Of a stretch of 46,857 bases of DNA, positions 8,783 to 38,958 are shown in pieces (positions within the stretch are counted from its first letter, which is position 1; the number at the start of each line of letters is the position of its first letter). The DNA is from an uncultured bacterium (GTDB lineage Bacteria; Muiribacteriota; Ozemobacteria; Ozemobacterales; Ozemobacteraceae). Below the pieces are notes generated by a model, which ran no database searches, was not told the DNA's origin, and worked only from the letters and a program-made list of their open reading frames with translations. The stretch is from the NCBI GenBank assembly GCA_964522035.1, contig CAZFUG010000003.1:1-46857 (forward strand). The letters run 5' to 3'. The translations under genes and the position numbers were made by a program.

Positions 8783-9238
8783 TCAGGCTTCGGCAGTTTT
8801 AGCGGCTGAATTACCCCATACAATCTGCATCAGAGGGCGATAGTTTTCTTCAAGATTTTTAACGCTCAGGTCAATGAGAGCTCTGATCATGTTGGGTTCG
8901 AACTGTTCACTGGTAGTGGGCAGACAGATATCCATCACGATTTCGCCGGCTTCGGTCACGAAATACTTGAAGGTTTTATAGCTGCTGTTGAGAGTGTTCA
9001 GAAACTTGAGGGTTTCGAGGCGATTCGCATCGGTGAGGCATTTGCCGGCCACAAGAGTGCGGCAGATTACATAAATGCTGTCGTCGATTATTACAACCAG
9101 CGGCAGGCGCTGCCCTTCGATTTCCATTGAAGATCTGAAAAGAACCGTATTCAGTTCATCTTTGACTTCTTCTGGGGAAAAACAGTTGATGCCGTTATCA
9201 GTCAGCATTTTCGCGAATTTTTCGGCCTTGGTGTTCAT
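8783..9238 (-). CDS. YbjN-like / type III secretion chaperone-fold protein (tentative)
   Basis: 151 aa, acidic, with no signal peptide. The alternating beta/alpha pattern (...LPLVVIIDDSIYVICRTLV..., ...YFVTEAGEIVMDICLP...) resembles YbjN-family proteins. SD AGGAG. It lies 19 nt downstream of tpsB. Confidence 0.45.
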   Translation of the reverse strand: MNTKAEKFAKMLTDNGINCFSPEEVKDELNTVLFRSSMEIEGQRLPLVVIIDDSIYVICRTLVAGKCLTDANRLETLKFLNTLNSSYKTFKYFVTEAGEIVMDICLPTTSEQFEPNMIRALIDLSVKNLEENYRPLMQIVWGNSAAKTAEA

Positions 9239-22900: not shown

Positions 22901-25900
22901 AACCTGACCGGCTATGCCAATAATTCTTGAATCATTGCCAGCCTTGCTCAGGTAATTGCCAGTTGTAATAACCGAATTAACGGTGCCAGAATTAACTTTA
23001 GAGCTGATATCGTTCCAGATTACAGAGCCGCCGGCAGCAGCGTTCTTTTTGCTTACGGCAACGCCACCGGCAGCACTGACCATGAACGTATCCGACTTCG
23101 CATTGGTTTCGACCGTGCCGACACCAGCATTGATCGTGCTGTTTTTAATTTCAGCAGAAAAATTGTTGTCGATATCATTGATCGAAAGACCGGCACCGAC
23201 TGCTGTATCGGCAACACTGATTGCCATTGCTCCCGAAACGATGAGAGAGCCTTTTTTAATCTGGTCTTTCAGTGACGTATCAAGTTCTCCGTCGGCTTCA
23301 TTTGAAGCATCGACATCGTAATAGTCGCCGCCATCGGTATCAACGAATGAACTGACACCAGAATCAGCGCGGTCAAGTATCTGCCCGAAACCGGTCTCAT
23401 TTTCACCGAGAAAATAATCCCTGGCGTTGACAGAAACTTTTCCTGAGGCAGTTATGTTTGCCTCATTGATTTCTGCCTTGAGATTATTGTTGGTTTCGTT
23501 ATAGATCATGGCACCCATAAGAGAGACAGTGCCGTCTGTACCCGTTACTATGCCGGCAGTGACAGCACCGTTGATCTGAGCGATTGCCTGCAATGCCGCA
23601 ACAGCAACGTCGTTGACCATATTGAAAGTGCCGCCGGTAATTTTTGCCGACACATTGTTGTCAATTTTTGAAACGTTCACAGCGGCGCCAAACGCGCCCT
23701 TCTGCTGCCCCACCGTAACCTGGACTCCGCCGGTAATCTGCAGATCGCTTTCGTATGCTGCGACTTTGACGTCTGTTTTCAGGCTGCTTTTTCCGGTGAC
23801 ATTGGTGTTATTGAGTTCGGCATTCACGGTATTATCAATGTTGTTGAGAGAAACCGAACCGCCCATGGTAAAAGCACCGGCGGCGTTGCCCGAGTTTTTA
23901 GAAACCTGAAGACCAAGGGCTGCAGCGACATCGGTGCCGCCATTGACTGCAAAAACATTGAGGTCGTCGGCGTTGTTAACGGTGCTGTTCTTGATAACAG
24001 CTTCGGTTTTATTCTTGAGCATATTCAAACCAACCGCACCAGCGATGCCAACGCTTTTGCCTGAAGTATCCTTCGTAGCGGTCTGATACATTATGCCTGC
24101 AGTACCTGCAAAGGCCATTACATCGGTGTTGTTGACGGCAATGGCATTCAGATTCGAACCGGCAACACCACCGAGATCGAGGGTCATACCGCTTATATCG
24201 ACCACGGTGTTTGTGTCGATAAAATTCAGACCGCCGCTGCCGGCAACCGAAAGGCTGACACTCGGGTTTGTATGTGTTCCAGTGCTGCTGGTTTTGGTTT
24301 TATTAGAAAGCTCAGAGGTTATATTCGAGAACTTGCCCGAAATTGAATTGATGGTGCCGACCACCTTGCTTTCGGCATCGTTGGCTTTTCCAGATATTTT
24401 GTCGGTAATACCGGGCGCGCCGCTGTCGTCATTTTTGGTAATGCCACCGGCAACGCCGGCGGCAATGAAACCGCCTTTACTTTTGGCCTGGGCATCGATC
24501 TGGCCGGTCACAGCAATTTTGGCATCGGTTCTGCTTCTGGCACTGTCGGCCGTGGTGGCTTTATCGATTCCGGCCTTTTCATCGAGATAGTCCTGGTATT
24601 TTTTATCGATGTCGCCAATCAGCACGATGCTGTCTTTGACGAAGTCATTGATGGCAAAACCGGCAGCAACACCGACTGAACTCGAAATCATCACCGATCC
24701 GGCAAAATTGATGATTCTGGTATTGTTCAGAGCATTAAGTTTGAGGTTTTTTGTCGATGCGACGCTGGCCTCGTTGTCAAAGTTAACAGAGGCATCACTG
24801 ACACCGGTCAGATGAGTAAACATGCCCTGTATGCCGGCTCCGGCCATGGCGGCTGCAAAACCGCCAACGACAGCTTTTGCATCGCTGGTGGCAGAAATCG
24901 AAATGTCTTTGCTGCCGCCGATCAGGTTTACTCCCTCCGGCACCATGACTTTTGCAGAAGAATTGAAATCCTGAGAGAAGTAGGTTCCGCCCATGGCTTT
25001 TGAACCAGAACTCGGGATCAGATAACCGGCGGCACTGATCATGTCTATATCAGTATTAGCAGCGACTTTTATTGAATCAGAGACTGAGGTCGCGGGATTT
25101 ACAGACTGAATGGTGACATTGCGGCCAATCAGAACATTGCTGTTGGCCTTGAAATCTGTGAGACCGACAGCCCCGGCAAAACCGATATCCGTTGTATTTT
25201 CTTCATTTGCACCTTTAACGGCACTCGAAACCGCAGTGTTGAGGAAATTATTGTAGAAAGCAAAGTCGGCGGCAGAAGTGACGATTTTTGCCGCCTCGGC
25301 CACGATGCGATTTTCCCCGGTAATAAGGTTATTGAGGGCTGTGGTCATGGTGCTCAGCGAAGTAAGAGCGTCAATGAAACCGGTGATGTTTTCTGCTTTG
25401 CTCAAGCCTTCGGAACCAACAGCCGAAAATTTATTTTTGATGGTCTGGTAGGCAGTTTCGACCGAGTTGATCATGGACAGCTGAGTTGAGTCGGAAACCG
25501 AGATTTTGAGCGTGGCGATCGCATCTTCGATCGCGGCGATCATGCGCTTAACCCGGTTATATTCTACTTTAACTTCGCTGCTGATATCGACAGTCTTACC
25601 GGTAAGAACGGTGCCATTGCCGGTTGTTGCATTGTAAGAGGCATCGGCAACCTTTACAGTTGAGTCCTGAGAAATGTCTGAATAAATAATACCGGCACTG
25701 ACAGAGGCCTTTGCGCCGTCGGCGGTATTCATTTTCGATCTGGCAACGCTGTCGGCCTGAATAAACAGATCCTGGACCACGGAAGAAGACTTGAGTATCA
25801 GATCGTTGCCTGAAGTCAGCTTGACGTCGCTGCCAATTGTCAGACCGGCATCATGACTGCCCCGGTTTACTACAATCGCGCCGGCAGCCCTGAATTTGGT

Positions 25901-27946
25901 CGACTGGTCCTTGATCGGCCCGGTAAATTTTGAGGTGAGCTTGCTCAGGCTGAAAATGCACGAAACTATGCTCGACTGAAGGTTTGCCACCGCCTGCGAA
26001 ATTTTTGTGTGGCCCACCGTGCCTTTTGCGGTCGAGCGATTCTGCAGCACAAGGTTATAAGCAGAAAGGTCGATATTGCCCGGAGCATTGATGCTGCTGT
26101 TGACGCTGACTTTTGCCGAAGAGTCGAAATCGGTAAAATTGATTGCAACCCCGGCATAGCTGTCATCACCGGTTTCGACTATGGCCGTAGTGGCCACATC
26201 GCTGCGGTTGGTTGCCTTGCCCTTAACTGCCCGTTTAGCATTCACTGATGCGGAATTGTTAACCTTGATGTCTGAGCGGTTGGTAACCTTGCCGATAACG
26301 ATGCCCGTGGAAATTGCGGCCTTGTCATTTGCAGTTTTCGAAGCGGCCGTGGCATCGAGAGAATTGTCTGAAAGAGCGTTGATCGTTATGTCGCCCGCAG
26401 TTGCATCGCCGGTGGTGCCGGCATTGAGGCTGCCGTCGATGACAACATTGGCGTCGCTGCTTACTTCGGCAAAGACAACCCCGGCGGCAACTCCGCCTGA
26501 AGTCTGTTTGATCTTGGCTATTGAGGTACTCGCACCGACAATGACGTCTGTTTCACTCGACGCTTTGATGTCGATGTTCTTTTTGGAGGTAACAATCGCA
26601 CCCTGTTTGACTTTAACCTCAGCCTTACTGCTTACGACTGCCGTTTGTGCCGAGATGTTTACCGGCGATACCATGCCGACGATCATTATACCCAGATCAG
26701 TCGGGCTTGTTGAGCTTTTATAAACATTGGTCGCAAAAGCCCGCATGTTGATATCATTGTCAGCATTGATTCTTGCAGTTGTATCCACTTCAACAGTGGC
26801 ATTCACCGAAGAAATCGAGTCGGCACCGACAAAGGTTTTAACTTCTTTGTTTTCGCCATATTGAACGATGGTTTCTTTGCCCGAAAGCGTGCCGTTGACG
26901 GCGACGGCCTCGAAACTGGCGTTACGTTTTGCGTTTACCGTGCCCTTAACGGTCACTTTCGCATCCGAGGTGGCTTTAATATATGAACTGAAGCCGTCTG
27001 ACCCCTTTGAGGTCGAAGAGATTCTGCCGACATTGTCAGCAACAGCTACCAGTTCGACGTTTCCGTCTTCGTTCGTGGTCATCGCCAGGCCGGAAACATT
27101 TACGTCGACAAGATCTGTCTGTGAGAAGAATGAGCCGTTCTCGTCCTGTTTCCAGATGTTGCTGGTATTAACCAGGGCGGAAAAATCGGTAACTCCGGTG
27201 TCGATTCTGGCGCCGCTTTCGAGGGTCACATTGCCGGCATGGGCGCTGACGTTGTCAACAGCATTGATTCGGCCGCCAATCACGATCGAGCCATCTGAGT
27301 TGAGCGGAACTCCGTCACCGGAAACAACACCGTTATGATTGACGAATTTACGTGAGGTGATCTGTGCAATCTCGGCAGCGTTGCCATCGATATTGAGACT
27401 GTAATCGCCGCCGACGAATTTATCCATAAATTCGCTGGTCGGGGTCATGGCATAAAACGCGCCGCAGTTAACAACCCCTGAACTACCGAGAACAAGTCCC
27501 TGAGAACTCAGAAAAAAGAGATTTCCGCCGATTTTATGGTCTTTAATGGCATTTACGGTACCATCGATCTCGATTCTCGATTTAACGAAATTGATCAGAT
27601 TGGCAGTGCCATTGGGAAGGTAAAAATTCGCCGTGTCGTTGGTTGCAAGATTGAAGCTGCTGAAAGAGTTGAAAGCATTGGTGCCGGAAATTTTCTGTGA
27701 AACGATGTGATAGTTGTAGTTACCGCTGTTGCCCGGATCGTAATAGACTGTTGTATTACCGGCATCATGAGCCTGGATATCAGTATAAGCAACCTGTCCG
27801 GCAGCAAAGTTGGATGTGGCGAGAAAACCCAGACCGGCAATGCCGGTCGCAATTTTTTTCAAGGTTTTGTCGAAGACACCTGGAGTTGAATTTTTTCTGG
27901 CAAACGATCTTAAAATACGCCTTTTCCAGGTTTTCAGCAGACTCAT
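10904..27946 (-). CDS. tpsA: Giant two-partner-secretion exoprotein (TpsA; filamentous haemagglutinin / LktA-like beta-helical adhesin), 5,680 aa
   Basis: A single 17,043-nt ORF with SD AGGAGA. It starts with an extended signal peptide (~50 aa). A TPS domain follows (...NAFNSFSSFNL..ANFYLPNGTANLINFV...IDGTVNA...GNLFFLSSQGLVLG), which carries the degenerate NPNL/NPNG blocks. After that come thousands of residues of G/A/S/T/N/V-rich beta-helix repeats such as GGSVAINDIDNNTGALVDN. Confidence 0.9.
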   Translation of the reverse strand: MSLLKTWKRRILRSFARKNSTPGVFDKTLKKIATGIAGLGFLATSNFAAGQVAYTDIQAHDAGNTTVYYDPGNSGNYNYHIVSQKISGTNAFNSFSSFNLATNDTANFYLPNGTANLINFVKSRIEIDGTVNAIKDHKIGGNLFFLSSQGLVLGSSGVVNCGAFYAMTPTSEFMDKFVGGDYSLNIDGNAAEIAQITSRKFVNHNGVVSGDGVPLNSDGSIVIGGRINAVDNVSAHAGNVTLESGARIDTGVTDFSALVNTSNIWKQDENGSFFSQTDLVDVNVSGLAMTTNEDGNVELVAVADNVGRISSTSKGSDGFSSYIKATSDAKVTVKGTVNAKRNASFEAVAVNGTLSGKETIVQYGENKEVKTFVGADSISSVNATVEVDTTARINADNDINMRAFATNVYKSSTSPTDLGIMIVGMVSPVNISAQTAVVSSKAEVKVKQGAIVTSKKNIDIKASSETDVIVGASTSIAKIKQTSGGVAAGVVFAEVSSDANVVIDGSLNAGTTGDATAGDITINALSDNSLDATAASKTANDKAAISTGIVIGKVTNRSDIKVNNSASVNAKRAVKGKATNRSDVATTAIVETGDDSYAGVAINFTDFDSSAKVSVNSSINAPGNIDLSAYNLVLQNRSTAKGTVGHTKISQAVANLQSSIVSCIFSLSKLTSKFTGPIKDQSTKFRAAGAIVVNRGSHDAGLTIGSDVKLTSGNDLILKSSSVVQDLFIQADSVARSKMNTADGAKASVSAGIIYSDISQDSTVKVADASYNATTGNGTVLTGKTVDISSEVKVEYNRVKRMIAAIEDAIATLKISVSDSTQLSMINSVETAYQTIKNKFSAVGSEGLSKAENITGFIDALTSLSTMTTALNNLITGENRIVAEAAKIVTSAADFAFYNNFLNTAVSSAVKGANEENTTDIGFAGAVGLTDFKANSNVLIGRNVTIQSVNPATSVSDSIKVAANTDIDMISAAGYLIPSSGSKAMGGTYFSQDFNSSAKVMVPEGVNLIGGSKDISISATSDAKAVVGGFAAAMAGAGIQGMFTHLTGVSDASVNFDNEASVASTKNLKLNALNNTRIINFAGSVMISSSVGVAAGFAINDFVKDSIVLIGDIDKKYQDYLDEKAGIDKATTADSARSRTDAKIAVTGQIDAQAKSKGGFIAAGVAGGITKNDDSGAPGITDKISGKANDAESKVVGTINSISGKFSNITSELSNKTKTSSTGTHTNPSVSLSVAGSGGLNFIDTNTVVDISGMTLDLGGVAGSNLNAIAVNNTDVMAFAGTAGIMYQTATKDTSGKSVGIAGAVGLNMLKNKTEAVIKNSTVNNADDLNVFAVNGGTDVAAALGLQVSKNSGNAAGAFTMGGSVSLNNIDNTVNAELNNTNVTGKSSLKTDVKVAAYESDLQITGGVQVTVGQQKGAFGAAVNVSKIDNNVSAKITGGTFNMVNDVAVAALQAIAQINGAVTAGIVTGTDGTVSLMGAMIYNETNNNLKAEINEANITASGKVSVNARDYFLGENETGFGQILDRADSGVSSFVDTDGGDYYDVDASNEADGELDTSLKDQIKKGSLIVSGAMAISVADTAVGAGLSINDIDNNFSAEIKNSTINAGVGTVETNAKSDTFMVSAAGGVAVSKKNAAAGGSVIWNDISSKVNSGTVNSVITTGNYLSKAGNDSRIIGIAGQVSAGKGPAIGLAFTYNKIVNNSNAFCLATKVTGPGYSVVGSQFLVNAINNGEIMNLALSVPVSNQVGIGGSVAINDIDNNTGALVDNRYVDDAGVTKTVSGISDSNFENFSTIAAESSDIKSISGTLGFGGEASIGGAVAYNEINGKTAAAVNNVTVGGKNVTVKSTNDADIWTLASGCGGAGEVAVQGAAATSEISRTISAGMNNVSETKNDSSIDVVAESTGEINSNATVVSIGKSVGVGAGVVVNRMSDDVTSSLTGGVLAIKDLDIRSKATQTIRTIGVAGAGGAYAGVSGSVAVNVIKNNVSSFIDGNANIVAEDNIGVVAQSDETLLNYSGVVAGGVAGVGAALSVNDIQGNTRAYVENATVQAKGLAGSVSLNNGISDTSMNSGFIDDSTLNVKYTLEKQRAASTKKGLVVDSSATHTLKSFVANAAGGGIAVTGTVNVSRIAGETSARVSNTRINNGVTGGDVSINSGDYANLSGFVGSVGISGGSGVGMTSDSGIVNRTTSAKMDGTITGSTAKDVAVTSEAKTGISAIDAGISLSGLNSVAGTVSVNVLKSNTEAVVNNSNLTVNSLLVKANHWARTSIVDGTASVGGYVGVGGAVGINDIRDKVKAEVTSSNVAMKANGSGKFEVQAINQMTLKTIGAAVAGGMAGLAGNVGLNIIETDVLANVKNSNMTNRATDVTVKADDSLTLDANLGTVAVGAVGAGVSAGVSVLDGKTRAIVDGSKLLAVNSIDITAREVRNVTQNAFTAAAGIGGFAGNVIYISSGNLLINTDEDGASNVRDAVSSAEKVNSGNISESNGALTDAEKLSLNADGGKLTSSEAGRAATAVAVGKIDATVGSTLDSQGTINVKAVEDSNFSVIGGSGAVGMVAAGGSACFIDVNRNVAAKLTNATLVSGKTTDVNAKITGSSDLDMYQGSIGYLGAGTAAYGRIGTGGKVFTELTNSSLTSTGNILISADDTTSATAESYGLTAGMIAAGALITQIDNDTSAAVTLTGNTISSGGSASQVNIKAERAGTLTAKSLGGAAGLFAAGTGIGSTIKDAGSATVTSTGGTYTGKSKISFDATSKPTAVSEAKSAAISGLVSAGVSVAKSELSGTTEVSVSGTNSFNAPEVAFSSTNSGKNTLLAEGLSGGFLTSFGYNLSDAQNNSIVKVLIGDSTFINKATKLALNGTNIVTQNVETRGLNIGGIVASGNNKAKAESNTSTKVELTGNSTSAREVGSIDIKADSSSIHDIAADGNGGGLISVDGLSAYAINKMTTLAEAVISGKWKITDKLNLFAAQNDTVNMSADSMRAALIGYSGTKAENTINSTTKVAIADNSAVDANGNIEFQAKNTIDCNDDGANSASGGGYGGIVVNGAYSDSSITSTTEAKIGKNASLVTNGDIYGEALTDAEIHNRVLTEGAGMVANPLAHSYNTVSFNNKLLTGTNSVLKTVKPGKNINLAASDNLTAVLTADSDMQGGLGGYSEAKTSADISRNNTVDISGDIYSANDARLYTDADARGKTAVYTLTATADAYNKHSAVAVAKATLDSTTNQNNKININSGADINTIRHIALHSGTGKMAMTETASEYTWYSSSTTGGYTSTASGLRSKNLVTGNTVTVNGSLVSGINNYVELKITGLVDLLGLVTGSTTSPTVTSTVSQYAAGVTTGIMDYGNELFTRYQEICGLIAEYAGTVAGAGYLAEKTRLLAEMEKYGLYDPATETVIGGLYIQYLSLPDMVCSGGNVSIDADKVAGTGSIDAKGAPQIVINNDSNLYMKVNDLSIIDYGGELIYNSLSLGNTAKTVFTTLSKVQTSDSSSARIAINENWNGTLNVVEDGVNKTLTPITNIELNGNISNPQGKVVIDNRSGDIVMQGATAETGATITAGEIEMKASEGAISQGFSDGILNIGGTPEEIYKDFATVQETLINGNESTSVSKTSVSNSIDESRQQGTWIAGGSVYLSATNINVNGLIQSGYSEYKMTLSTDAQNKINLFDKNYTGQNITPDMLQAYKLNTGGVKKDSAGKWYFEVQAYYNPQTKQVILEDIDPKGGRVYLTGRIASTGNGKILAFDGSSEINLVNQTSRPITLGKINLGKEAGLISITDLEKNNITEFRRDSTSTRTIGATTSTISGPSAVYTPKTGQYYNWTTGKTVAAVENYYKKVDFRLWGGYTKNETTIHEYESEENLLSSSSGEQNRLPGTYIGTLPKSGTSEYVINYDNDVDYYSSYFDKWITYSNAIKSRGSEHYKWGSTVGKILTFQHSIKADHNINIGFIGSTSGGKVNVSSAGNVNMTGDIAGHAGTSMTISATNGSIQQTGGRLIGDHLNLTAKSGIGSDGAIKHLGVSDNGSLSAVSTTGNINIVSKASSGKQGNLELGKVTTGGDVKLTVDGSISRSSAADALVKGRRIDLVSNNGSIGKTGSALWIQAGQTPAASGDTMSASINAKARNGIYLEQTSGDMRLGRIESETGDVELKVTNGSFDNVLPVVDNSNDRKGDDLVEKWISMGLINADGTDNSAAVKTRVLADYENSVKSEFASFSAQKTFYAANPTVTKTASYNELLKKYGSYSSAAAYLTAKKADASSDYYKIANNTYGWTKDNLLYALQKSIMNPTSGSTGSINRPANVKGKNITLTAVNGGIGKDGTPEELSIANLSSNLDVLKKLAGAEASDITWKEAEGKAIINNKTAIGIEMIDATGGLTATAKNNIYIAAATEDPIYLKNVNAGSSDIRLLGKDGIFNLNSNAASVNVKGKDLIIEGGAVGTTSAIGTTDKAIVTDLSGKLTARAEGYINIFQNSANTLNISALYGGGDVKIRSFKNMGSVNTGITFDDSGYVNALGKLTLVSDSGNIGEDGKGIRLLTDNLDSVDATAGGSIFIKGLTNASSKPALNIGKVKTASTGAFKVVSDTAAVNFSDAVEAGTMDVNTTLVSQDEAKSSIKAGTLNSVTTAGFALDSLNNQISNAAISNNSGSILLKNKSALKLLGITNSSTASTDKLIVNNTANLTFGGAVDAKNIEIAATAVSQDSVSSIKTDNLNVATSDGMNLQSLENQIKKATLSNSKNGNISLGNKIALTLAGITNSSTSTSSMFSVNSTAAVDFAGAVNAKNVSVKALSVSQNEKTSSIVTDKLEAGAEKGFSLDSANNQIAKAAIANKTSGSIYLKNKVNLELLMVDNNSVNAADKVQIVNTGSLAVNGTVRGPKVDFSATSISQGRYGSVITPDLNVTTVNGLSLNNGTNQIAQATLKNTSTGDIELGNSVSLKLMGIDNLSTAANSRFFIGSTSDVTFGAAVNALNVFVKARSVAQDEAASKISATQLSVETTDGMSIDSQLNNISAASLRNKTTGGILFRNKPTLKLLLAENNSADSGAVVIENTGSISLNGNVIGKRIDLKADSITQDEASSVVKAADLLVSAVNGISIDSTNNEIGRADLANATKGNVELKNKTDLILSAVNKSTSVSDKMLVNCAAGLMIERELNALNIDLKALALTQNRGSRIITDNLSAVTQNGMLLSNIDNQIKQASLSNSSTGRIEFGNSVSLKLAGFSSVANTERERDRIQQIGNLEFAGNVSSGYLEVNADTITQNESSSAIKAGTLQVMTREGMSLDSLNNEILTAGIENRRGDTVLKNKTALQLKYVRGGDSLTIGNNGNITALGDIEARMVTINLIGSLNSNYRLTAANDLTVNATGNITARTVRARNVKLTSGVAQSSLALNLAGKSDLNLRLHLEDAEAATDSRVSGSAVNQIAESGGINVHDLLAEEDVYGLTENGDIMLANIGGKRVTLIINNDQGRVNVDQAALGESMNVTAGEFKGGLLEHTETGDNLKLGFTGSNGRYMNDVTIDKITSGKGVQVDNLDSITARINADCDNLQLNSVDLLGLGQFANNQTSVVVTGSENSSSEIKFAGSGVSVTRRAKQRSEMSLTDRVAGIFSSNFAGMGKDVKARDNAGLEGAGSSEDMIDYSAVSSDNAVSGKLASHGNRVFLTDSDEEEREMSADVENETSETEIKD
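12020..14200 (-). repeat. Coding tandem array of about 7.5 diverged ~92-aa repeats in the TpsA C-terminal quarter
   Basis: The unit (L/I)DSxNNQIxxAxLxNxxxGxIxLxNKxxLxLxG...V..A..V.Q(D/N)E.SSI....L......G recurs head to tail. Copies are diverged at both protein and DNA level. Confidence 0.8.
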
Positions 27947-28237: not shown

Positions 28238-28876
28238 TCAACTGGTGCCGTCTTTGTCGAACATATCATTTTTGTATGCAAGAATGGCCTTCTGGCGCAA
28301 CTGTTTGATGCCAGTGACATTAAGCTTATTCATTATTCTCACACAATATGATTCCAGTGTACGAACACTGATGCCGAGCTCACTGGCAATACTGCTGTTG
28401 CTCAGACCACGGCCGAGCAGGCTGTAAATCTGCTTTTGCTGGGCGCTGAGTTCATCTATCGGGTCTGAGTCCGACAATATTTCGACAACCTGCGGGCTGC
28501 GATAGATTTTACCGGCAAGAACGCAATTTATGGCTTCAACCAGAATGGCCGGGGTCTCCCTTTTGGTCACATAGCCGGCGGCGCCGGCCTGAAAAGACTG
28601 GCGAACGACGCTTGCTGTTTCATGCATCGAATAAACGAGCGTCAGGCGGCCCGCTTCCTGCAACCTGCTGATCAGAGCAAGACCACTGCTATCTCCGAGC
28701 GAAAGATCGATAATGAAAAGCCTGAAGCTGTCGAAGTCGGAGTGTGAAAATACGCCGACAGGGTCGGCTGCCTGACCGGCAACTCTGAAGCCGGCAGCGG
28801 TGAGCAGATGCTGCAGACCATCGCGCACCAGAGGATGATCGTCGACAATCATGATTGCAGCATCTTTTGTCTTCAT
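28238..28876 (-). CDS. NarL/FixJ-family response regulator (REC + LuxR-type HTH)
   Basis: 212 aa with IMIVDDHPLVRDGL, the phospho-acceptor context FIIDLSLGD, and the C-terminal LSAQQKQIYSLLGRGLSNSSIASELGISVRTLESYCVRIMNKL. Confidence 0.9.
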   Translation of the reverse strand: MKTKDAAIMIVDDHPLVRDGLQHLLTAAGFRVAGQAADPVGVFSHSDFDSFRLFIIDLSLGDSSGLALISRLQEAGRLTLVYSMHETASVVRQSFQAGAAGYVTKRETPAILVEAINCVLAGKIYRSPQVVEILSDSDPIDELSAQQKQIYSLLGRGLSNSSIASELGISVRTLESYCVRIMNKLNVTGIKQLRQKAILAYKNDMFDKDGTS

Positions 28877-30219
28877 TCAGTATTCTCCATTGCCGGCAAA
28901 CGGCAAACCACCCTGGTGCCGCCCGTCTGACTGCTGTTGATTTCAAGAACGCCGCCAATCAGGCCAGCGCGGTATTTCATGATGTTCAATCCCATTCCCC
29001 GTGAAAAGTCGGCATTATCTGGCATTCCTTTGCCGTTGTCTGCAATTTCGAGCACCAGATCGGCCTTATCTATACAGAGCTTCACAAAAATCTCGGAACA
29101 TCCGGAATGTTTCACTGCGTTTGTCAGCGATTCGCTGGCGATGCGATAAAGATGCATACTTATTGCCGGCGTTGCAACATTAATTTCGTGGTCGGCCTGC
29201 AGTTTACAACCGATGCCATTTCGTTGCCTGACTGCGCGACACAGGTCATGCAATGCCGGAACCAGAGCATCAGCTTCAATATTCACCGGGCAAAGGCCGC
29301 GGGCAACTTCGTAGGCCATTCCGATCGATTTTTCAACGGCACCGCGGATTTTTTCAACCGACCCGAGGTCGGGGGCGGCGGTCGCTTTCATCTGGTATTC
29401 AAGAGCACTGCAGTTAAGAAGGGTTGCCGTCAGATGCTGGCAGAGGCCGTCATGCAGTTCTGCCCCGAGTTTTCGACGTTCCTCTTCACCAATTCTGTTC
29501 AATTCAGCCTCAAGAAGTCTGTTTCTGGTGGTTTCTGCCTCGATGCGGTCACGGGCTGCACGAACCGCATCTACCGTTCTGTCCTGGAGACGGAGAAAAT
29601 GACCGATAAGATAAAGCTGAGGAAATATATTTCCTACCCAGACAGCCACCTGAAACAGCCAGTATCCGGCAGCAATGTTTTCGACATGCATCGACAATGG
29701 AGCGATAACACCTGAAGTTACAAGATAAGTGATTGAACCGAGAATAGAAAAACACAACAGCAGAATATGTCCGGCAAAGCGGTTTCCTCCGATAATCAGA
29801 GCGGTTACCGGCAGAAAAGCGAGAGTGAGGCGCCCGCTTCCAATCAGTTGGGTTGTAAGGAACTGAATTGCCCCGATAACTGCTTTGGCACTGAAAAGAA
29901 TGTAAATTCTGCTGGTAAGAGATATGCCTTTTACCAGCGAAAAGATAACGCACGGCAGATAAATAAAAAGAACAAGGTTGCCTGCCCATTGTGGAATCAG
30001 TTCAAATTGGCCTCTGAAGGCCGCCAGAGTAACCGGCAGGTTGGCGATCAGAGAAGCAAACACAACGATAATCAGCGCTCTTTCGCGCCATGAATGCATT
30101 ACCTCTGATGGATTTTCAACCAGAGCGCTTTCGTTGAATTCAGGAAACAGATTGAACATCGAGAGCAGCGTGTCCAGAAAACTCTGTTTCTGCGAATAGA
30201 CTGGTATTTTTTCTTTCAT
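28873..30219 (-). CDS. Membrane sensor histidine kinase (HisKA_3 / NarX-LiaS type)
   Basis: 448 aa with ~6 N-terminal TM helices and no large periplasmic domain. It has the H-box EERRKLGAELHDGLCQHL and HATPase N/G boxes (...LTNAVKHSG..., ...DNGKGMP..., ..GMGLNIM..). ATGA overlap with the regulator gene. Confidence 0.9.
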   Translation of the reverse strand: MKEKIPVYSQKQSFLDTLLSMFNLFPEFNESALVENPSEVMHSWRERALIIVVFASLIANLPVTLAAFRGQFELIPQWAGNLVLFIYLPCVIFSLVKGISLTSRIYILFSAKAVIGAIQFLTTQLIGSGRLTLAFLPVTALIIGGNRFAGHILLLCFSILGSITYLVTSGVIAPLSMHVENIAAGYWLFQVAVWVGNIFPQLYLIGHFLRLQDRTVDAVRAARDRIEAETTRNRLLEAELNRIGEEERRKLGAELHDGLCQHLTATLLNCSALEYQMKATAAPDLGSVEKIRGAVEKSIGMAYEVARGLCPVNIEADALVPALHDLCRAVRQRNGIGCKLQADHEINVATPAISMHLYRIASESLTNAVKHSGCSEIFVKLCIDKADLVLEIADNGKGMPDNADFSRGMGLNIMKYRAGLIGGVLEINSSQTGGTRVVCRLPAMENTE

Positions 30220-30485: not shown

Positions 30486-33383
30486 TCAATAATCCGGGCG
30501 GCGGCTGAGAATCATGAGGCTGTAGTCATCCTGCGGTGGCTGATTCTGGCGCCACAGGCAGTTGGCGGCCATTATCCGCTCATAGAACTGCTGGCTGCCA
30601 GTGCAGTGGTTTTCGCGCAGCAGGTTTTTAAACTTTTCATATCCGAGCTCTTCGCCATGATCATTTCGCGATTCGACCAAGCCATCGGTATAAAGAACGA
30701 TTGCATCGCCGGGCTCAAGATTTACCTCGCACTGACTGAACTTCGCATTTTTGAACGAGCCAAGAGCAGCACCGGGAACGGTAAGTTCTTCAACGGTTCT
30801 GCCTTGCATTCTGACGATATAAGGGTTACAGCCACCGGCGTTTGAGAAAACGACCTTGTGTTCGCGGGTGTCGACCATAACATACTGAAAGGTCATGATT
30901 TTTTTCTGCTTCTTGCTTTTGGTGCGATAGATCAGATCATGCAGACGGTTGAGAAGTTCGGCCGGCCGATCGAGAAGTTCGGTGGAATTAAGCATCGCAG
31001 ACTTGGCCATCGCCATAATCATGGCGGCTCCGACCCCATGCCCGGCGACATCGCCAAGCACCGTCACGAACTTTTCATCGTTGAGCTGAAAAGTGTCGAG
31101 ATAATCGCCACCAAGGTCGGCCATGGTGAGGGTCCTGCAAAAAAGGTCATAATGGCCGGTTTCGACCTGCTGCTTCGGAAAAAGCTGCTGCTGAACATCG
31201 CGAGCCAGACTCATTTCCTGAAGATCGGCGAGAGCGCTGTTGAATACGCGGGCCATTCTGCCGAATTCATCTTTGCCAGACCACGGAATTCTGAAGGCGA
31301 AGTTGCGGCTTCTGATCGCTTCGGTGCCGGTCTGAAGCAGATTGACAGGTCTGATGAGTGTCTGCACAAAAATCAGCGTGATCCCGGCTACGAGAAGGAT
31401 GTTTATCAGCATGATGCCGAAAAGCTGTCGCTTTTCAATACTGAGAAGTCTTTCAATTTCATCGACAGGAGACAGCGCAATCAAACTGTTATCGCCAATG
31501 ACATTGCTGACAAACCCGGCAGATACCCAGGTCTGACCGTCGAGCTCAATCAGTTCAGCCTGCGGTTGCGGAAATGAAGTTAACCTGGCAAACAGTTCCC
31601 TTAATTTCAGCCTTTCGGTAAATGGCGCTATTTCTAGATTTTTGAGGTTCTGCCCTTGAGAATAAACAACTTTGATACCGTGGGTATTTCTTTGAAAAAC
31701 AGAATGCATGCTGGTCATATAATTTCTGGCATGAGCACCCTGATTGAAATGAAACATAAACAGGTAATCAGCCAGATTTTCAGGATTGAAAGAGAGAAAA
31801 TGCATAAAGGTCGGGTGTTTTTCTGTTCCCATGCCGATGTGCTCAACATTTTCGAGAAGCCTGAGAAACTTATGAAAAGTCGCATGCAACTTCGACTGGA
31901 AAATAGCCTCGATAATAAGTTCAACTTCGGTAAGCACCTGCTCTGCGAGGCTGCTGCCGTTATAAAAAGCAATAAAGGCAGACCCGCACTTGCACATGGT
32001 CTGATTGAGTTTAACCCGGTCTAGTTGGCTTTTATCAGCCGTTTCAACAAACTCTAGTGATAATTCACTAGATGGAACTAGAGCTTCGATGGCAAAAGCC
32101 TTATCTTTACCCATGAACACGACATCACTGATTGAAGGGTATGTAGTGCTCGCCACAATCATAAATTTACCTTCAACCCTGGCTATGCTCTTTCTGAAAT
32201 CAAGGGTATTTTCAGGCGACAGGGGCTCATGGCGAATTATTTCGCCCAATTGGTCTATCTGCTGAATAGCAAAGTTCTTGATTTTGTGGGTCGCGGCAAT
32301 GAATTCACCCTCGATCTGCCGCAAAAACTTCACGGATTCGCCGCGGCGCTCATCGATGAGTATCTGGCGCTTCTGTTCGATGTATTGCTGCCCAAGAATA
32401 CCCATGATAAGCAGCGGAAAAACATTCGAACAGGTGATGATAGCAATGACGACATATCTTATACTGATACCGACATGCAGCTTTTCATGCAGAATGCGGT
32501 TAAAGACCAGGGTCCAGAAAAAAGCCAGAACCACCGAAAAAAGCAGAGTATTGCGGCCGGAAGAATCTTTATCGGTTGCTTTGAAAAGACAAAAAAACAG
32601 GTCTTTGTCGACAAATCTACCTGTGTAAATACCCACGGCGTCCTTTAAAACCTCAGGAGCCTTAAGTGAAAAAGAATTTCTCAGCTGCAGAAGCTTGTCG
32701 GAGGTCTGCTCAGGCATATTCGAAAAGAAGAAATCATCTTTGCCAATAACAACGCCGCTGCCTTGCAGATCGAAGTTGTTGAGAAACTCTTTTATTCCGT
32801 GATTTTTCTTTTCTATTCCCGGCGGAAAAAGAACTAGCGCACCCGATTTTTCGTTGAAGTCAGCCCAGAAACTGCCGGCCGGGCGAAAAAATGAAAGACG
32901 GTTGAGAGACGGGTTATTTCTGAACGTTGCCCGACCAAAGGTTTTTGTCTGAAGATGTTCTCCGAGAACCGAGCGAACAAAGCTGTCGTCAGATTTATCC
33001 AGATCAAAAAACCAGGCTTTTGATGCCTCTCTAAGAATCTTTCCAACCCTGTGCCAGTTTTTATAAGAATATTGACTATCGATTTTTTTGGCAACAACCT
33101 GGCTGTCAGCATTCCATAAAACCCAGCGAATATTTTCGCGGTGCTTTTCTGCAAGCATTTTCAGGCTGGCGGCAAATTTATCAATGCTTTCCGCTGAGGC
33201 AAAATGGCGGTTCAGCTCGTGACACCAGAATTCAGAATTTTCAGAATATGATTCAAGTTGCTGAGCTGCACTGTCTACGAGATTGCCGAATGCCCGCAGT
33301 TCGACCTCCGCATTCTGTTCGGCAAAAAATGCATTTATCAGCCAAAAAGCCATTACCGGCATCAAAAACCCGATAAAGATCAT
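30486..33383 (-). CDS. Membrane sensor PP2C phosphatase (double extracytoplasmic domain - HAMP - SpoIIE/RsbU-type PP2C), 965 aa
   Basis: Four predicted TM segments and a HAMP-like linker after LFGIMLINILLVAGITLIFVQTLI. PP2C motifs are GGDYLD, LGDVAGHGVGAAM, FSNAGGCNPY and LYTDGLVE. Confidence 0.85.
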   Translation of the reverse strand: MIFIGFLMPVMAFWLINAFFAEQNAEVELRAFGNLVDSAAQQLESYSENSEFWCHELNRHFASAESIDKFAASLKMLAEKHRENIRWVLWNADSQVVAKKIDSQYSYKNWHRVGKILREASKAWFFDLDKSDDSFVRSVLGEHLQTKTFGRATFRNNPSLNRLSFFRPAGSFWADFNEKSGALVLFPPGIEKKNHGIKEFLNNFDLQGSGVVIGKDDFFFSNMPEQTSDKLLQLRNSFSLKAPEVLKDAVGIYTGRFVDKDLFFCLFKATDKDSSGRNTLLFSVVLAFFWTLVFNRILHEKLHVGISIRYVVIAIITCSNVFPLLIMGILGQQYIEQKRQILIDERRGESVKFLRQIEGEFIAATHKIKNFAIQQIDQLGEIIRHEPLSPENTLDFRKSIARVEGKFMIVASTTYPSISDVVFMGKDKAFAIEALVPSSELSLEFVETADKSQLDRVKLNQTMCKCGSAFIAFYNGSSLAEQVLTEVELIIEAIFQSKLHATFHKFLRLLENVEHIGMGTEKHPTFMHFLSFNPENLADYLFMFHFNQGAHARNYMTSMHSVFQRNTHGIKVVYSQGQNLKNLEIAPFTERLKLRELFARLTSFPQPQAELIELDGQTWVSAGFVSNVIGDNSLIALSPVDEIERLLSIEKRQLFGIMLINILLVAGITLIFVQTLIRPVNLLQTGTEAIRSRNFAFRIPWSGKDEFGRMARVFNSALADLQEMSLARDVQQQLFPKQQVETGHYDLFCRTLTMADLGGDYLDTFQLNDEKFVTVLGDVAGHGVGAAMIMAMAKSAMLNSTELLDRPAELLNRLHDLIYRTKSKKQKKIMTFQYVMVDTREHKVVFSNAGGCNPYIVRMQGRTVEELTVPGAALGSFKNAKFSQCEVNLEPGDAIVLYTDGLVESRNDHGEELGYEKFKNLLRENHCTGSQQFYERIMAANCLWRQNQPPQDDYSLMILSRRPDY

Positions 33384-33421: not shown

Positions 33422-35587
33422 TTATGAGCTTTTTCCGTGTCTGATAAGAACAAAGCTGATGTCATCCTGCTGCGAAGCAGCCCAGCTGTCGAACGCTCTG
33501 AAAAGGTTTTCAAGAAAAACTTCAGGGTTCTCGCTCCATGCCTTCATGGCAGCATGCTTGAAGCCATCCATACCGAGTATCTCGCGGTTGGCATTGACGC
33601 ACTCAAGAATCCCATCAGAATAGAGAAGTATGGTTTCGCCCGGCTGCAGTGCCACGGACATGCCGGCAAACTTTCGCTTTGCCGAAAATCCATACGGCAA
33701 AGATTGAAATTCAAGCAACCTTGTTGTGTTGCCACCTTCAGAGATGATAAGAGGCGGGCAATGCCCGGCATTGAAAAAGCTGACCGCATGTTCATGGTTA
33801 ATATGAACGACCTGCCCGGTCATCATGGTACTGATTTCGGCTTTTCTCAGCGTGCAGAAAGTCCGGTTCAGCCCTTCCATAAGCTTTTCAGGTTCGAGCC
33901 TGGACGCATTGTTCAACAGCAAAACACTCTTGGCCATAGCCATCAAAAGGCCGGCCTGGACTCCATGCCCGGCCACATCAGCCATCAGAACCGTCAAATT
34001 GTTTTCGGCATCGACGACAAAGTCGAAGTAATCACCGCCAAGCGTTGTCATTATGCGGGTTTTGGCAACAATAGAGAATGGACCGAAAGCAAGCGATTGC
34101 TGCGGAAGCAGGCTTTCCTGAACAGTTCTGGCAATTTCGAGTTCCTGCAGGTTTTCGAGAGAACTATCTATCGATTTGCCAAGTTGCCCAAACTCGTTGT
34201 CGAAAGGCATATCGATGCGATATGAATAGTTTCTCTGTTTAACCATCTCAACCCCTTCTGCCAGGGCATTTATCGGTAAAATCAGGTAATAACCGAGAAC
34301 CTGAAAAAGGCTTAATGTCATCAGCAGGCTCAAACCAGCCATGACCCAGAGATTCTTTCTGAAGCGCCCGATCTCATGGTTCAGAATTTCGCTGTCGACA
34401 ACGACTGCCATGATGGCTGAATTAACATTGGTACCGCCCTGACCGAATACCAGATAGGTTCTGCCATCCTGGCCTGTGAGCTTCTGCTGCGACGGGCCAT
34501 GCTGCAAAACCTTCTCAAAAAATGGCCTTAACCCGGGCAAATTGCCAGACTCCGGAAAAGTTTTTCCCATATCCGGCATTGCGAAAAAGAACTGCTTTTG
34601 CTTTGCTGCGCTCGAAGCAGCAATCACACTGTTGAGATATTCACAATGCATCTGCTTCTCAGGCCAGAAAAGCTGCATAAGATATGCATATTCACCCGTT
34701 CCGGATTTTCTCAGGGTATTCAGATATGACAGATAGGTCGTATTCGCCAGAGTGAAAGGCATCAGTTTCTGATGATTCTCTGAAAAGCTTCGGGCAAAGC
34801 CATTTGCAATACCATCATCAGGGTTATACTGGTTTTTGGCATTGCAGTTGAGATAGGTCAGCAGCTCACGGGCCGCGGTTTTTCTCAAAAAGTCATCTTT
34901 GATCGTCTTTGCATAGGCGGCTTTTAGCAGATCCCCGCCGGAAGCGTCAGAAAAAACGAAGGTATCGGGTTTGAATCTGGCATTAACAGAGGCTGCAGTT
35001 GCTGCGAGAGAAGCAGCTGCAAAACTTTCAGCCCCTCGAGGGAAAAGGCCGGCGAAAGTCTGGTTCAGTTGACGGGCTTTCACGTGCAAAAAGCCTCTGA
35101 ACTGATTATCGATAGAAGTCAGATACTGAAATGCCTCGACCGATTTTTCGGTAACGACCTGCTTTTCTTTCTGCTTCAGGTAATCAAAGCTGACGACCGT
35201 AAAAACCAGAGCCGGAATAAAAGCAATATAGGCAAAAATGGCTATGAGCCTTGATTTAACCGAGTGCAGCGGGTTCGCATGCACCATAAAATAGCAGTAG
35301 AGAATGAACGTAACCAGCGCAAAGCATGCCAAAATTCTGGCCATGAAACGACCGGTCGTCGCTGAAACACTTGCGAAAAGGCCGCGCTGCAGCACCGCTG
35401 CAACCCACCATCTCTGGTTGAGTTTCTGATAGTTGAAGTAATCGCCTGCAGATTCAAGCTGTTCAGGCGGCACCAGCCGGCGAAACTTGCCGAAATTCAG
35501 AAAAACCCGGCTGTTCAGAGGTGCAGTCTGCGGCGGAACCAGATTTTGCTTCTGTTCATCGATGAGAATAAAGTCGATACCCGGCAT
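33422..35587 (-). CDS. Membrane HAMP-PP2C (SpoIIE-type) phosphatase; C-terminal 721-aa part of a paralog split by an in-frame TAG
   Basis: PP2C motifs GGDYFD, MADVAGHGVQAGL, FFNAGHCPP and LYSDGILE. It is colinear with residues ~205-965 of the 965-aa neighbour. Confidence 0.85.
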   Translation of the reverse strand: MPGIDFILIDEQKQNLVPPQTAPLNSRVFLNFGKFRRLVPPEQLESAGDYFNYQKLNQRWWVAAVLQRGLFASVSATTGRFMARILACFALVTFILYCYFMVHANPLHSVKSRLIAIFAYIAFIPALVFTVVSFDYLKQKEKQVVTEKSVEAFQYLTSIDNQFRGFLHVKARQLNQTFAGLFPRGAESFAAASLAATAASVNARFKPDTFVFSDASGGDLLKAAYAKTIKDDFLRKTAARELLTYLNCNAKNQYNPDDGIANGFARSFSENHQKLMPFTLANTTYLSYLNTLRKSGTGEYAYLMQLFWPEKQMHCEYLNSVIAASSAAKQKQFFFAMPDMGKTFPESGNLPGLRPFFEKVLQHGPSQQKLTGQDGRTYLVFGQGGTNVNSAIMAVVVDSEILNHEIGRFRKNLWVMAGLSLLMTLSLFQVLGYYLILPINALAEGVEMVKQRNYSYRIDMPFDNEFGQLGKSIDSSLENLQELEIARTVQESLLPQQSLAFGPFSIVAKTRIMTTLGGDYFDFVVDAENNLTVLMADVAGHGVQAGLLMAMAKSVLLLNNASRLEPEKLMEGLNRTFCTLRKAEISTMMTGQVVHINHEHAVSFFNAGHCPPLIISEGGNTTRLLEFQSLPYGFSAKRKFAGMSVALQPGETILLYSDGILECVNANREILGMDGFKHAAMKAWSENPEVFLENLFRAFDSWAASQQDDISFVLIRHGKSS

Positions 35588-35599
35588 TCTGCCCTTCAG

Positions 35600-36331
35600 C
35601 TATTTCTGCAGAAAATCGGGGCCGCTAAGTCGACCTCTGATCTTATCCGAAATATAAACAAGAACCGAGAAGTCATCGCAAGCTGAATACCAGCCAAGAA
35701 CTCTGTCGCCACGGGCATGCAGTTGAAAACAGCCGGCAGAGGCATCATTGACAAAAGGTTTAACCAGAACCTCCGGGGTGGCAAACGGCCCCAGAAACTG
35801 CCTGAGCAGGCGCATATCACCGGCAAATTTTTCGTTGAAACCGTCTTCGATATACGCACCGGCGATGGTTTCGCGCCTGATGGTTCCGAGAAAAACATTC
35901 AACTTTTTTGCAAGAAAGCTGAAACGCGTGTCATCAGAAGCTGAGGTCATCAGATTGCCGCTTTTATCCCAGAAAATGAATGTAAAGGTCTCGGGAAAAA
36001 GCTTTTTAAGCATCTGTGACCGCCCGGCAACCCAGGATTCCGTGTCTTTCCGGGTCGCTTCGGCGGCAAAACTTTTCTGCAGCAGCAGATGGAAAAATCT
36101 CGCATCATCTGCATATTCGCTGAATCTGAGCAGCTGCCGGCCGGTTTTGTCAAAAATTTCGCTGCGCCGGTCAGCAATTTCGAGTGCGAAAAACCTTTCC
36201 ATTTCAACATAAAGAATGATGAATGGAAAGATAATCAGACAAACATAAAGCACAACCCTCGTTATCGAGTATTCTGTGCTGTCGACAGACTTTGCACAAA
36301 CAGACATGCCCTGAGTATAAACAAAGCCCAC
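35600..36331 (-). CDS. N-terminal TM + extracytoplasmic sensor-domain fragment of the split PP2C paralog (243 aa)
   Basis: It is colinear with residues ~1-205 of the 965-aa paralog (FFALEIAD/FFAEQNAE, FTFIFWDKSGNLMTS/IRWVLWNADSQVVAK). It ends at TAG 35600-35602, in frame with the ATG at 35587. The start is uncertain: GTG 36331 or ATG 36307. Confidence 0.6.
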   Translation of the reverse strand: MGFVYTQGMSVCAKSVDSTEYSITRVVLYVCLIIFPFIILYVEMERFFALEIADRRSEIFDKTGRQLLRFSEYADDARFFHLLLQKSFAAEATRKDTESWVAGRSQMLKKLFPETFTFIFWDKSGNLMTSASDDTRFSFLAKKLNVFLGTIRRETIAGAYIEDGFNEKFAGDMRLLRQFLGPFATPEVLVKPFVNDASAGCFQLHARGDRVLGWYSACDDFSVLVYISDKIRGRLSGPDFLQK

Positions 36332-36567
36332 GGCAATCTCAAAACAATTTTCGGCCGGCAGAAAATTTCTGCAATGCTGAATTTCCGCAAAACAATCGCA
36401 CTTATTGATTACTGCATAAACAAAATTAAATCGGTTCGTCGGCCCAGTCTATCAGTCGGACCTATTTTTAAAGACGATTCTGCTTTTTATTTGCAGTTGC
36501 TAATAAATGCAGTGTCCACTATCCAGACAAGATGCCCATCTGTAATCCTTCCGGACACAAATGCTGG

Positions 36568-36726: not shown

Positions 36727-37404
36727 ATGTCTGAAAAAAAAGCGTTCAACAACGCCGGTTTCATAAAAATCGGTCTGCTTCTGATACTGGCCGTGATTGT
36801 CGTAACCGTTTTCGTCGCGGTGCGTGGGCTGCAGACTTTCAGATGGGGCATGGCAGAATGTCTGCGCTGGCAAGGCGAAAGCCTCTCTGAGCGTTTTTTT
36901 GTCACTGACGAAGCCAGCAGGCAGCTTGTAGCCATGACCGGCGAGTTCGCCCGGCAGATCGAATCGGGCGCGGTTTCGCCACTGAAAGGCTTTACAGTTC
37001 TGCGAGCCTTTTACAACGGGCCACTGCTGCTGACTCTTTTACACACAAGCCTTACCCAAAGCCTGCATGCAACTGAAATGCCCGACGGCACCAACACCGA
37101 AGAGCTAGCCAACACCTCTCTGCGATTTTTCTTCGCCGCAAAGCAGGGAAAAATAGCATTGCCGGCGCAGAAAGAAATTATCGACATGCTGATGGAAAAA
37201 CGCGTCGTCGAAACCCCCTCTGCGCTCGGGCTTGCAATTCCTGAGCAGACCGAGTCTTTCAGAAAAAGGCTCAGTCAGAGCACCATGCTCAGCTGTCTCA
37301 AACGCATGGGCGAAATCAGCAGTGACACTGCCGCGCTTTCCCCCGACGCCATTCTCGACCCGGCGGTTGAACTCAAGCAAATCCTGGCAGCAACGCTGCT
37401 TTGA
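36727..37404 (+). CDS. Membrane-anchored hypothetical protein
   Basis: I prefer the start at ATG 36727 (MSEKKAFNNAGFIKIGLLLILAVIVVTVFVAV, one TM) with GAGG upstream. The track ORF starts at 36646. I recognise no family. Confidence 0.55.
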   Translation: MSEKKAFNNAGFIKIGLLLILAVIVVTVFVAVRGLQTFRWGMAECLRWQGESLSERFFVTDEASRQLVAMTGEFARQIESGAVSPLKGFTVLRAFYNGPLLLTLLHTSLTQSLHATEMPDGTNTEELANTSLRFFFAAKQGKIALPAQKEIIDMLMEKRVVETPSALGLAIPEQTESFRKRLSQSTMLSCLKRMGEISSDTAALSPDAILDPAVELKQILAATLL

Positions 37405-38226: not shown

Positions 38227-38958
38227 ATGAAAAAAAACAGCCGAAGACTCTCCGCCCTGGTTGGGATTGTTACTTTAAAAGTGTTCTGCGCCGGCCTCGC
38301 ATTCGCAAACGGTCAGCTGCCCTGGTTAAGATTGTCGCCACGGCCAGTTAACGATATCTGGATAAATGGATCGCCATTCACTTTTTACCCGGTTTCGCCA
38401 CCGGCCTGGAGCAAGGCTTTGAACCCAGACGCGGGCCTGCAGACAGCAGAAAAGCCCGACACGCCCAGAAACGATAATGGTGGAATGCCTCGCCCGATGC
38501 AGCTTGCGCAGAGAATTCCCTACGTGCGGTCAATCATGGAAAGCAAGGATAGGTATCTGCACAGTCTTGACGAAAAACTGGATAACCCGGATGGCAGGCT
38601 GTTTTTTCCGATCATGAAAGGTTCTGAAGACCAGATGAACCGGCCGGCGCAAAGAGCGGCGGAAAACGAGAAAAATGACAAGCCCGATTCCACAGGCCAG
38701 AAATCAGAACGTGAAACCCAGGAAAGGTATTTCATCGGCTACCGCCTGAATCAACCCAGGAAGTCAGCCGACGAGAACTGGTATCTTGGCTTCGGCTGGA
38801 AAAGCGGCGAGGGCGGCAGAAAAGGTAAAATGTCCGGAAACAGGCGGGAAAAACAGACTGTTCTGAACCAGCCGGCGGAATCGGCTGATTCAGAAACAGG
38901 CAGTGCAGTAAAAACCGGCTACAATGGCCCGGTCATTGCCGTTGTCGGACAATTCTGA
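38227..38958 (+). CDS. Secreted hypothetical protein, low complexity, ending in ...VVGQF
   Basis: 243 aa with a signal peptide and a charged, low-complexity middle. The aromatic C-terminal residue is reminiscent of outer-membrane proteins. Confidence 0.45.
   Translation: MKKNSRRLSALVGIVTLKVFCAGLAFANGQLPWLRLSPRPVNDIWINGSPFTFYPVSPPAWSKALNPDAGLQTAEKPDTPRNDNGGMPRPMQLAQRIPYVRSIMESKDRYLHSLDEKLDNPDGRLFFPIMKGSEDQMNRPAQRAAENEKNDKPDSTGQKSERETQERYFIGYRLNQPRKSADENWYLGFGWKSGEGGRKGKMSGNRREKQTVLNQPAESADSETGSAVKTGYNGPVIAVVGQF

Follow-up and report, generated by a model that had tools for sequence, protein, structure and literature searches.

A sensor phosphatase gene in an Ozemobacteraceae genome is probably interrupted by a young amber nonsense mutation

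Two open reading frames (ORFs) that share one frame and are separated by little more than an amber codon raise the question of whether a bacterium encodes two proteins, a single recoded protein, or a broken gene. Such a pair lies on the minus strand of contig CAZFUG010000003.1 (assembly GCA_964522035.1) from an uncultured bacterium of the Ozemobacteraceae; the whole stretch of DNA analyzed, 46,857 nucleotides, is referred to here as the window. The pair occupies the upstream position in a tandem of sensor phosphatase genes. An earlier note, made from the sequence alone, had pointed out the split and proposed a recent nonsense mutation, a sequencing or assembly error, a genuinely split sensor with re-initiation, or regulated amber read-through. 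We favor, with a probability of roughly three in four, a derived and young amber nonsense mutation, which would make this an ordinary young pseudogene or broken gene. The ancestral state is one uninterrupted gene, in which a single C-to-T change turned Gln codon 236 (CAG) into TAG in the lineage of the window only, probably recently compared with the divergence of that lineage.

On the minus strand, the sequence around the stop reads CCC GAT TTT CTG CAG AAA TAG CTG AAG GGC AGA ATG CCG GGT ATC GAC TTT, that is, PDFLQK, the stop, and LKGRMPGIDF. Translation of positions 33422-36400 gives one frame with this sole internal stop, in which GPDFLQK and the stop are followed by LKGRMPGIDFILIDEQ; the two ORFs do share a frame and are split by TAG and four codons, as had been described. 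The N-terminal ORF as called mechanically (35600..36331, minus strand, 243 aa) begins with a GTG at 36331. The conserved start is the ATG at 36307 (MSVCAK...). Because the orthologs use the same Met and one of them (L008) has a stop immediately upstream of it, the N-terminal piece is more likely 235 aa long (35603..36307, minus strand), comprising the first transmembrane segment (TM1) and the first ~200 residues of extracytoplasmic domain 1. The read-through product from this ATG is 961 aa, against 962 aa in orthologs, and not the 969 aa given before. The amber codon itself (35602..35600, minus strand) is residue 236 and lies one C-to-T transition from CAG. The four LKGR codons and the ATG of the downstream ORF follow (35585..35599, minus strand) and form a possible, unselected restart site. 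A GAAGGG motif does precede this ATG, at 35597..35592 with the ATG at 35587..35585 (both minus strand), at a spacing of 4 nt (CAGA) rather than the 5 nt noted before. The C-terminal ORF (33422..35587, minus strand, 721 aa) encodes the rest of domain 1 (~85 aa), TM2-TM3, extracytoplasmic domain 2, TM4, a HAMP linker, and a SpoIIE-type PP2C domain.

The state of the gene in relatives carries most of the argument. Ortholog loci were collected from genome and metagenome contigs encoding relatives of the read-through N-terminus, together with contigs carrying close relatives of the adjacent paralog, and were then compared with the read-through protein by tblastn and translated; part of them come from metagenome-assembled genomes (MAGs) of Candidatus Riflebacteria or Ozemobacteraceae. 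Uninterrupted orthologs with no internal stop were found in L007, L015, L008, and L011 (962-963 aa) and in L012 (954 aa), at amino acid identities of 86% for L007 and L015, 76% for L008, 52% for L011, and 54% for L012; a further one (L009) is uninterrupted as far as its contig end. The codon aligned to the window TAG is CAG in L004, L005, L006, L007, L008, and the contigs L001/L002, and the aligned residue is Gln in L007, L008, L009, L012, L015, and L016; in L011 it is Ser. A stop at this position was seen in none of the orthologs. The in-frame stop therefore falls within a region that is uninterrupted in orthologs and is one substitution away from the sense codon that intact relatives carry, which identifies the amber codon as a derived C-to-T nonsense mutation.

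The wider family conveys the same picture. An exhaustive HMMER search with the 235-aa fragment retrieved 96 cluster representatives (clustering at 50%) among 1.84 billion proteins; 76 of them are 900-1010 aa long, with the homology to the fragment at their residues ~15-235, and most of the shorter representatives resemble fragments cut off at a contig end or by a frameshift. The canonical state of the family is one long protein, as judged from these sequences. Word-indexed protein searches with a junction-spanning query and with a profile of nine sequences returned only P0001, the 255-aa copy discussed below, the 721-aa protein of the window itself, and a partial ACD_39C protein. Among the short representatives, the 138-aa P0026 matches the 962-aa P0020 over its first ~100 residues and then continues in an out-of-frame tail; it looks like another frameshifted allele, from a more distant lineage, or like an assembly error.

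A single lesion is present in the 2.9 kb of the split gene, with no sign of later decay or of relaxed selection. Pairwise ratios of non-synonymous to synonymous substitution rates (dN/dS) are 0.118 between the window and L007 and 0.125 between the window and the frameshift-corrected L004, compared with 0.124 for the intact pair L007-L008, and they are similar on both sides of the stop. The lineage-unique changes number 69 synonymous and 29 non-synonymous in the window, a balance like that of the intact L007 lineage (126 and 56). With a neutral expectation of 3.41 for the non-synonymous to synonymous ratio, neutral evolution would occupy at most ~4.5-9% of the terminal branch of the window. Either the lesion is young or both pieces are still constrained, and these data do not separate the two. 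Together with the CAG of the intact 962-aa orthologs and the single lesion, the unrelaxed selection supports the recent nonsense mutation that had been suggested for this gene.

The same gene is also broken elsewhere, by other means. A sister species carries two frameshift alleles: a +1 frameshift (CC to CCC) at codon ~496 in L004 (3076-5962, an NCBI MAG) and L006 (3118-6004, a JGI metagenome), and a -1 frameshift (TTTT to TTT) at codon ~110 in L005 (3078-5962, ENA), L010 (an NCBI MAG), and L017 (JGI). With one base corrected, each allele reads as a clean ORF of 961 codons. The synonymous divergence (dS) between the two is 0.008, and no coding indel other than the two frameshifts breaks a frame in the 14 kb common to L004 and L005. 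No intact full-length allele was seen in this sister species, in which L016 is intact up to codon 322, where its contig ends. Phase variation was ruled out as their source, the tracts being merely TTTT and CC, and so was random assembly error, since each frameshift occurs in two to three separate assemblies and no other frame-breaking coding indel occurs in the 14 kb. The upstream gene has thus been disrupted at least three times independently, each time by a single hit, in close lineages that otherwise conserve it.

The downstream member of the tandem pair presents a different history. This paralog (30486..33383, minus strand, 965 aa) is uninterrupted in all nine related loci that cover it, and the named members of its 90%-identity cluster are proteins from Candidatus Ozemobacteraceae or Rifleibacterium MAGs. 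The colinearity of the split gene with it was confirmed in the order of segments and domains. At the sequence level, paralogy is clear over the C-terminal 373 aa (33% identity, E 3e-52), weak across TM2-TM3, and undetectable by BLASTP in the N-terminal fragment. Given three independent disruptions next to a paralog that is always intact, the upstream gene would encode a dispensable sensor, probably a redundant one, or a counter-selected one. Three independent hits on one gene in close lineages are more than simple drift usually gives, and such recurrence under otherwise strong purifying selection, with the tandem paralog never hit, is the reason for considering the sensor phosphatase a recurrent target of adaptive inactivation or attenuation in the Ozemobacteraceae. 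The amber allele might then be tuned rather than null: the stop ends a helix ahead of the remaining strands of domain 1, an ATG with a motif resembling a Shine-Dalgarno sequence (SD) follows, and the wild-type protein would be regained wherever UAG is misread as Gln. We regard this extension of the nonsense-mutation reading as unlikely.

The product that the mutation interrupts can be described in some detail. Hydropathy identifies four hydrophobic segments, at residues 18-36, 325-343, 354-372, and ~653-679 (numbered from MSVCAK), with a matching pattern in the 965-aa paralog. Both tandem genes accordingly show the architecture TM1, extracytoplasmic domain 1, TM2-TM3, extracytoplasmic domain 2, TM4, HAMP, and PP2C/SpoIIE. 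In the 721-aa ORF, the Pfam model SpoIIE (PF07228) scores 122.6 bits (E 2.5e-35), compared with 145.7 bits in the paralog, at a cut-off of 25, and HAMP scores 26.4 bits (cut-off 25) at residues 431-482, directly after a hydrophobic segment. The acidic PP2C motifs are present as GGDYFD, DVAGHG, YSDG, and QQDDIS. The metal-binding Asp columns of the PPM fold (D761, D900, and D951 of P0020) are invariant in 76 family members, and GGDYFD, YSDG, and QQDDIS of the window correspond to them. In its domain match, its HAMP segment, and these Asp residues, the 721-aa ORF thus fits a PPM/PP2C phosphatase of the SpoIIE type with a HAMP linker, as far as sequence comparison can tell.

The sensor domains are less familiar. 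The N-terminal fragment has no Pfam match, Cache models gave none in 10 family members at E up to 1, and no other Pfam model matched either sensor domain. The family was modeled with AlphaFold2 on P0020, which is 58% identical to the window N-terminal fragment, using a 76-sequence alignment (mean predicted local distance difference test score, pLDDT, 88.6). In this model, the second extracytoplasmic domain has the same element order as the first, and the order of secondary structure is compatible with two alpha/beta lobes per extracytoplasmic domain. The full-length model gave a weak Foldseek match to models of dCache chemoreceptors over ~410 columns, in a search dominated by the PP2C domain. 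Foldseek of the model of the N-terminal fragment against the PDB gave no match at E <= 0.001, the weak top matches being roadblock/profilin-like alpha/beta folds and sensor domains. The stop, at residue 236 within the extracytoplasmic region 37-324, does break the first extracytoplasmic domain, as had been noted. It aligns to P0020 residue 239, ahead of strands 247-253 and 258-260, helix 265-279, strands 292-298 and 303-310, and then TM2, so that four strands and one helix of the domain lie beyond it. The break may coincide with the boundary between two predicted alpha/beta lobes.

What the mutation does to the protein follows from this arrangement. Translation would end at TAG and release a 235-aa membrane-anchored piece without an output domain. 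The remainder bearing the phosphatase would either not be made or arise in small amounts when ribosomes happen to restart at the ATG 12 nt downstream. A restarted product would be missing TM1 and the initial two thirds of sensor domain 1, and the sensor would for that reason most probably be non-functional. Some residual function could be left by such a chance restart or by low-level misreading of the stop as Gln. The intact downstream paralog and the frameshifts of the sister lineage would indicate that loss of the gene is tolerated or even favored.

Several other explanations have to be weighed against this one. The amber codon could be an artefact, or a minority variant in a population that really carries CAG, and a single-base difference in a MAG invites that suspicion. 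However, the Logan contig L003 (3106 bp), assembled separately from run SRR12133403, matches the window at 100% identity from end to end, TAG included, with genes called at 235 aa and 721 aa, and the site is not a homopolymer. The run may contain the reads behind the MAG and hence represents an independent assembly, not proven independent sampling; even so, an error is hardly probable. A leaky or suppressed amber codon is also very improbable. Here, a near-cognate tRNA-Gln or a suppressor tRNA would insert Gln and yield a reduced amount of the ancestral protein, either from an attenuated allele or through regulated read-through. The ancestral residue is indeed Gln, which supE-type or near-cognate decoding places at UAG, and the base following the stop is C, a weak termination context reported for Escherichia coli. 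The rarity of TAG as a stop in the window, which the earlier note had remarked on, also holds for ORFs of at least 100 aa: the stops of 27 non-overlapping ORFs comprise 13 TGA, 13 TAA, and one TAG, which is the split itself. The absence of TAG from the other 26 is compatible with ordinary low usage of this stop. Against read-through, no other in-frame TAG occurs in the ~14,000 codons of long window ORFs, including one of 5680 codons, and real genes of relatives end in TAG (for example, the paralog in L012 and a 992-aa ORF in L013). The stop itself is conserved in no ortholog. No tRNA gene was found in the window or 18 related loci, the window has no Rfam family match, and shuffled sequences fold as well as the 121 nt surrounding the stop (z 0.32), so that the proposed regulated read-through is not supported. 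A terminator-like hairpin just upstream of the TAG (35635..35620) was likewise dismissed, as the scan returned 11 such sites where 7.5 are expected and local folding does not stand out from that of shuffles.

A functional two-piece sensor is the remaining alternative, which we consider improbable. Ribosomes would restart at the ATG 12 nt past the TAG with the help of AAGGG/GAAGGG, and the 235-aa lobe and the 721-aa remainder would reassemble or act separately. The SD-like motif and the ATG directly after the stop speak for it, and restart there is mechanistically plausible, with no sign in the sequence of selection for it. However, the intact L007 and L015 read FLQKQLKGRMPGIDF, the same as the window except for the stop, with the peptide QLKGRMPGIDF, and L007 DNA has the GAAGGG as well as the ATG. 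Both signals hence did not evolve after the split and are not a selected restart signal. L004 and L008 have Ile (ATC/ATT) in place of the restart Met, which had made a compensatory origin of this ATG conceivable; its presence with GAAGGG in intact L007 and L015 rules that out. The ATG is also unremarkable, since 13% of the codons in the split gene are followed by an in-frame ATG no more than five codons later; the SD of many window genes is no better than the GAAGGG site. No relative has a two-ORF arrangement at this position, orthologs being single ORFs and most family representatives full length, which leaves a genuinely split sensor unsupported as the ancestral or a conserved condition. The lesions of the sister lineages lie elsewhere (codons ~110 and ~496), fitting inactivation and arguing against a designed split. 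The 721-aa product would, moreover, begin with ~85 normally extracytoplasmic residues (10 Lys/Arg and 6 Asp/Glu) without a leader, and the earlier argument that this should disturb its topology is correct. Nevertheless, a number of observations weigh against a simple nonsense mutation and toward two pieces. The stop coincides with the C-terminus of a helix (P0020 231-240) and directly precedes a position of small indels in the family alignment, and the 235-aa fragment alone is predicted by AlphaFold2 to fold confidently (pLDDT 93.9, predicted TM-score 0.82). The unrelaxed selection in both pieces is also what a still-functional split gene would show, though a young lesion explains it equally. 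In addition, another lineage has its own truncated copy of the N-terminal module, independent of the window and ending no more than two codons from the position of the window stop; the chance of two independent endpoints falling so close is roughly 0.5%, as judged post hoc from a single case. Finally, the case for the nonsense mutation draws on one genome and one further assembly of the species.

That truncated copy, P0001, is a 255-aa ORF found on two ENA contigs and one Logan contig, standing alone in L001 (2709-3563) and L002 (858-1894) and adjoining an rve-family transposase and a small Cys-rich ORF. Its DNA is 92.6% identical to the intact L008 ortholog, and the homology stops 4 nt past the CAG equivalent to the window TAG. 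Beyond this point comes unrelated DNA, with a stop 12 codons on, and the contigs end 70-280 nt further; the post-break sequence had no match in viral contigs. An insertion sequence was considered as the cause of the truncation and rejected, as no terminal repeats were found. P0001 is the only other short N-terminal copy, and, given the DNA that follows it, it does not constitute an ancestral split. The coincidence of endpoints is the best argument that the N-terminal module may be a separable unit, resting on this single case.

Returning to the nonsense mutation, a close analog is the CAG/TAG polymorphism at codon 33 of rpoS in E. coli K-12, a natural amber allele in a regulator with possible downstream restart and possible Gln suppression. 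Loss-of-function alleles of this kind recur in populations. The window case appears similar as a single CAG-to-TAG change in a regulator, and unlike rpoS it is known from the sequence of one genome alone. It shares with ordinary young pseudogenes one disabling mutation, intact sister orthologs, a sense codon one step away, and an adjoining redundant paralog; it differs from them in that relaxed selection is still invisible and in the three independent hits on the same gene.

As to the protein, the PP2C domain of the family model superposes on that of SiaA, a membrane-bound HAMP-PP2C sensor phosphatase of Pseudomonas aeruginosa (PDB 6k4e), with a Foldseek E of 4e-11, TMt of 0.82, and a root-mean-square deviation of 3.0. 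Both have a HAMP linker between the last transmembrane helix and the SpoIIE-type PP2C domain. In contrast to SiaA, the family of the window has four transmembrane helices, two large extracytoplasmic domains without a Pfam match, and a tandem pair of paralogs, and no siaB- or siaC-like partners were identified beside the window gene. The partner-switching phosphatases RsbU, RsbP, SpoIIE, and RssB share the SpoIIE Pfam domain, and Foldseek matches included RssB, the RsbU domain of Rv1364c, and SpoIIE. The input domains of the window proteins differ from theirs, and no STAS or anti-sigma genes were seen in the window.

These findings bear mainly on annotation. A single entry for a disrupted gene, either a pseudogene or a nonsense allele, is appropriate for the two ORFs; they should be recorded neither as two proteins nor as a sign of an unusual genetic code in this candidate phylum. 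The kind of event is ordinary; only the recurrent inactivation of this particular gene and the uncharacterized double-sensor family are mildly interesting. The repeated knock-out of the upstream member suggests redundancy with the paralog or selection against its input in the sampled habitats. The family of ~960-aa, four-transmembrane, double-sensor HAMP-PP2C proteins is small; at 50% identity it makes up ~100 clusters out of 1.8 billion representatives, and its sensor domains are without a Pfam model. The literature found on Riflebacteria or Ozemobacter consists of general metagenomic papers only.

The start of the split gene has some features of its own. A promoter-like site, TTGAGA-17-TATACT (36314..36342, minus strand; 10 of 12 consensus matches, from a consensus scan only), ends 6 nt before the ATG at 36307, and the stretch is conserved in relatives, including the 78%-identical L008. 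This location suggests an mRNA that is leaderless or nearly so. Upstream of the site, ~99 bp (~36405-36503, with BLAST breaks at 36404/36504) are absent from L004, L007, and the other relatives and may be a repeat or an insertion of small size; the end of Logan contig L003, at 36464, falls within them.

On the other side of the tandem pair, the segment 8783-30219 (minus strand) is island-like in comparison with L004, L005, and L006, where a spermine-synthase-like gene (window homolog 7013..8602) directly follows the 965-aa paralog. The genes of this segment, all on the minus strand, encode a HisKA_3 kinase (28873..30219), a LuxR-type response regulator (28238..28876), a 5680-aa ORF without a Pfam match in any of four pieces (10904..27946), a ShlB/FhaC-type POTRA transporter (9258..10904), and a YbjN-like ORF (8783..9238). 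By its gene content, the island resembles a two-partner secretion pair with a giant, domain-less putative cargo. Another variable stretch of ~1.6 kb (37362-38987), including a 243-aa ORF without a Pfam match (38227..38958), is common to the window and L007 and absent from L004, L005, L006, L010, L015, L016, and L017. Further along, at 43362-46278 on the plus strand, a 580-aa protein resembling sensory-type [FeFe] hydrogenases (Fe_hyd_lg_C, Fe-S clusters, and PAS) overlaps a 399-aa SpoIIE/PP2C phosphatase, the third PP2C gene of the window.

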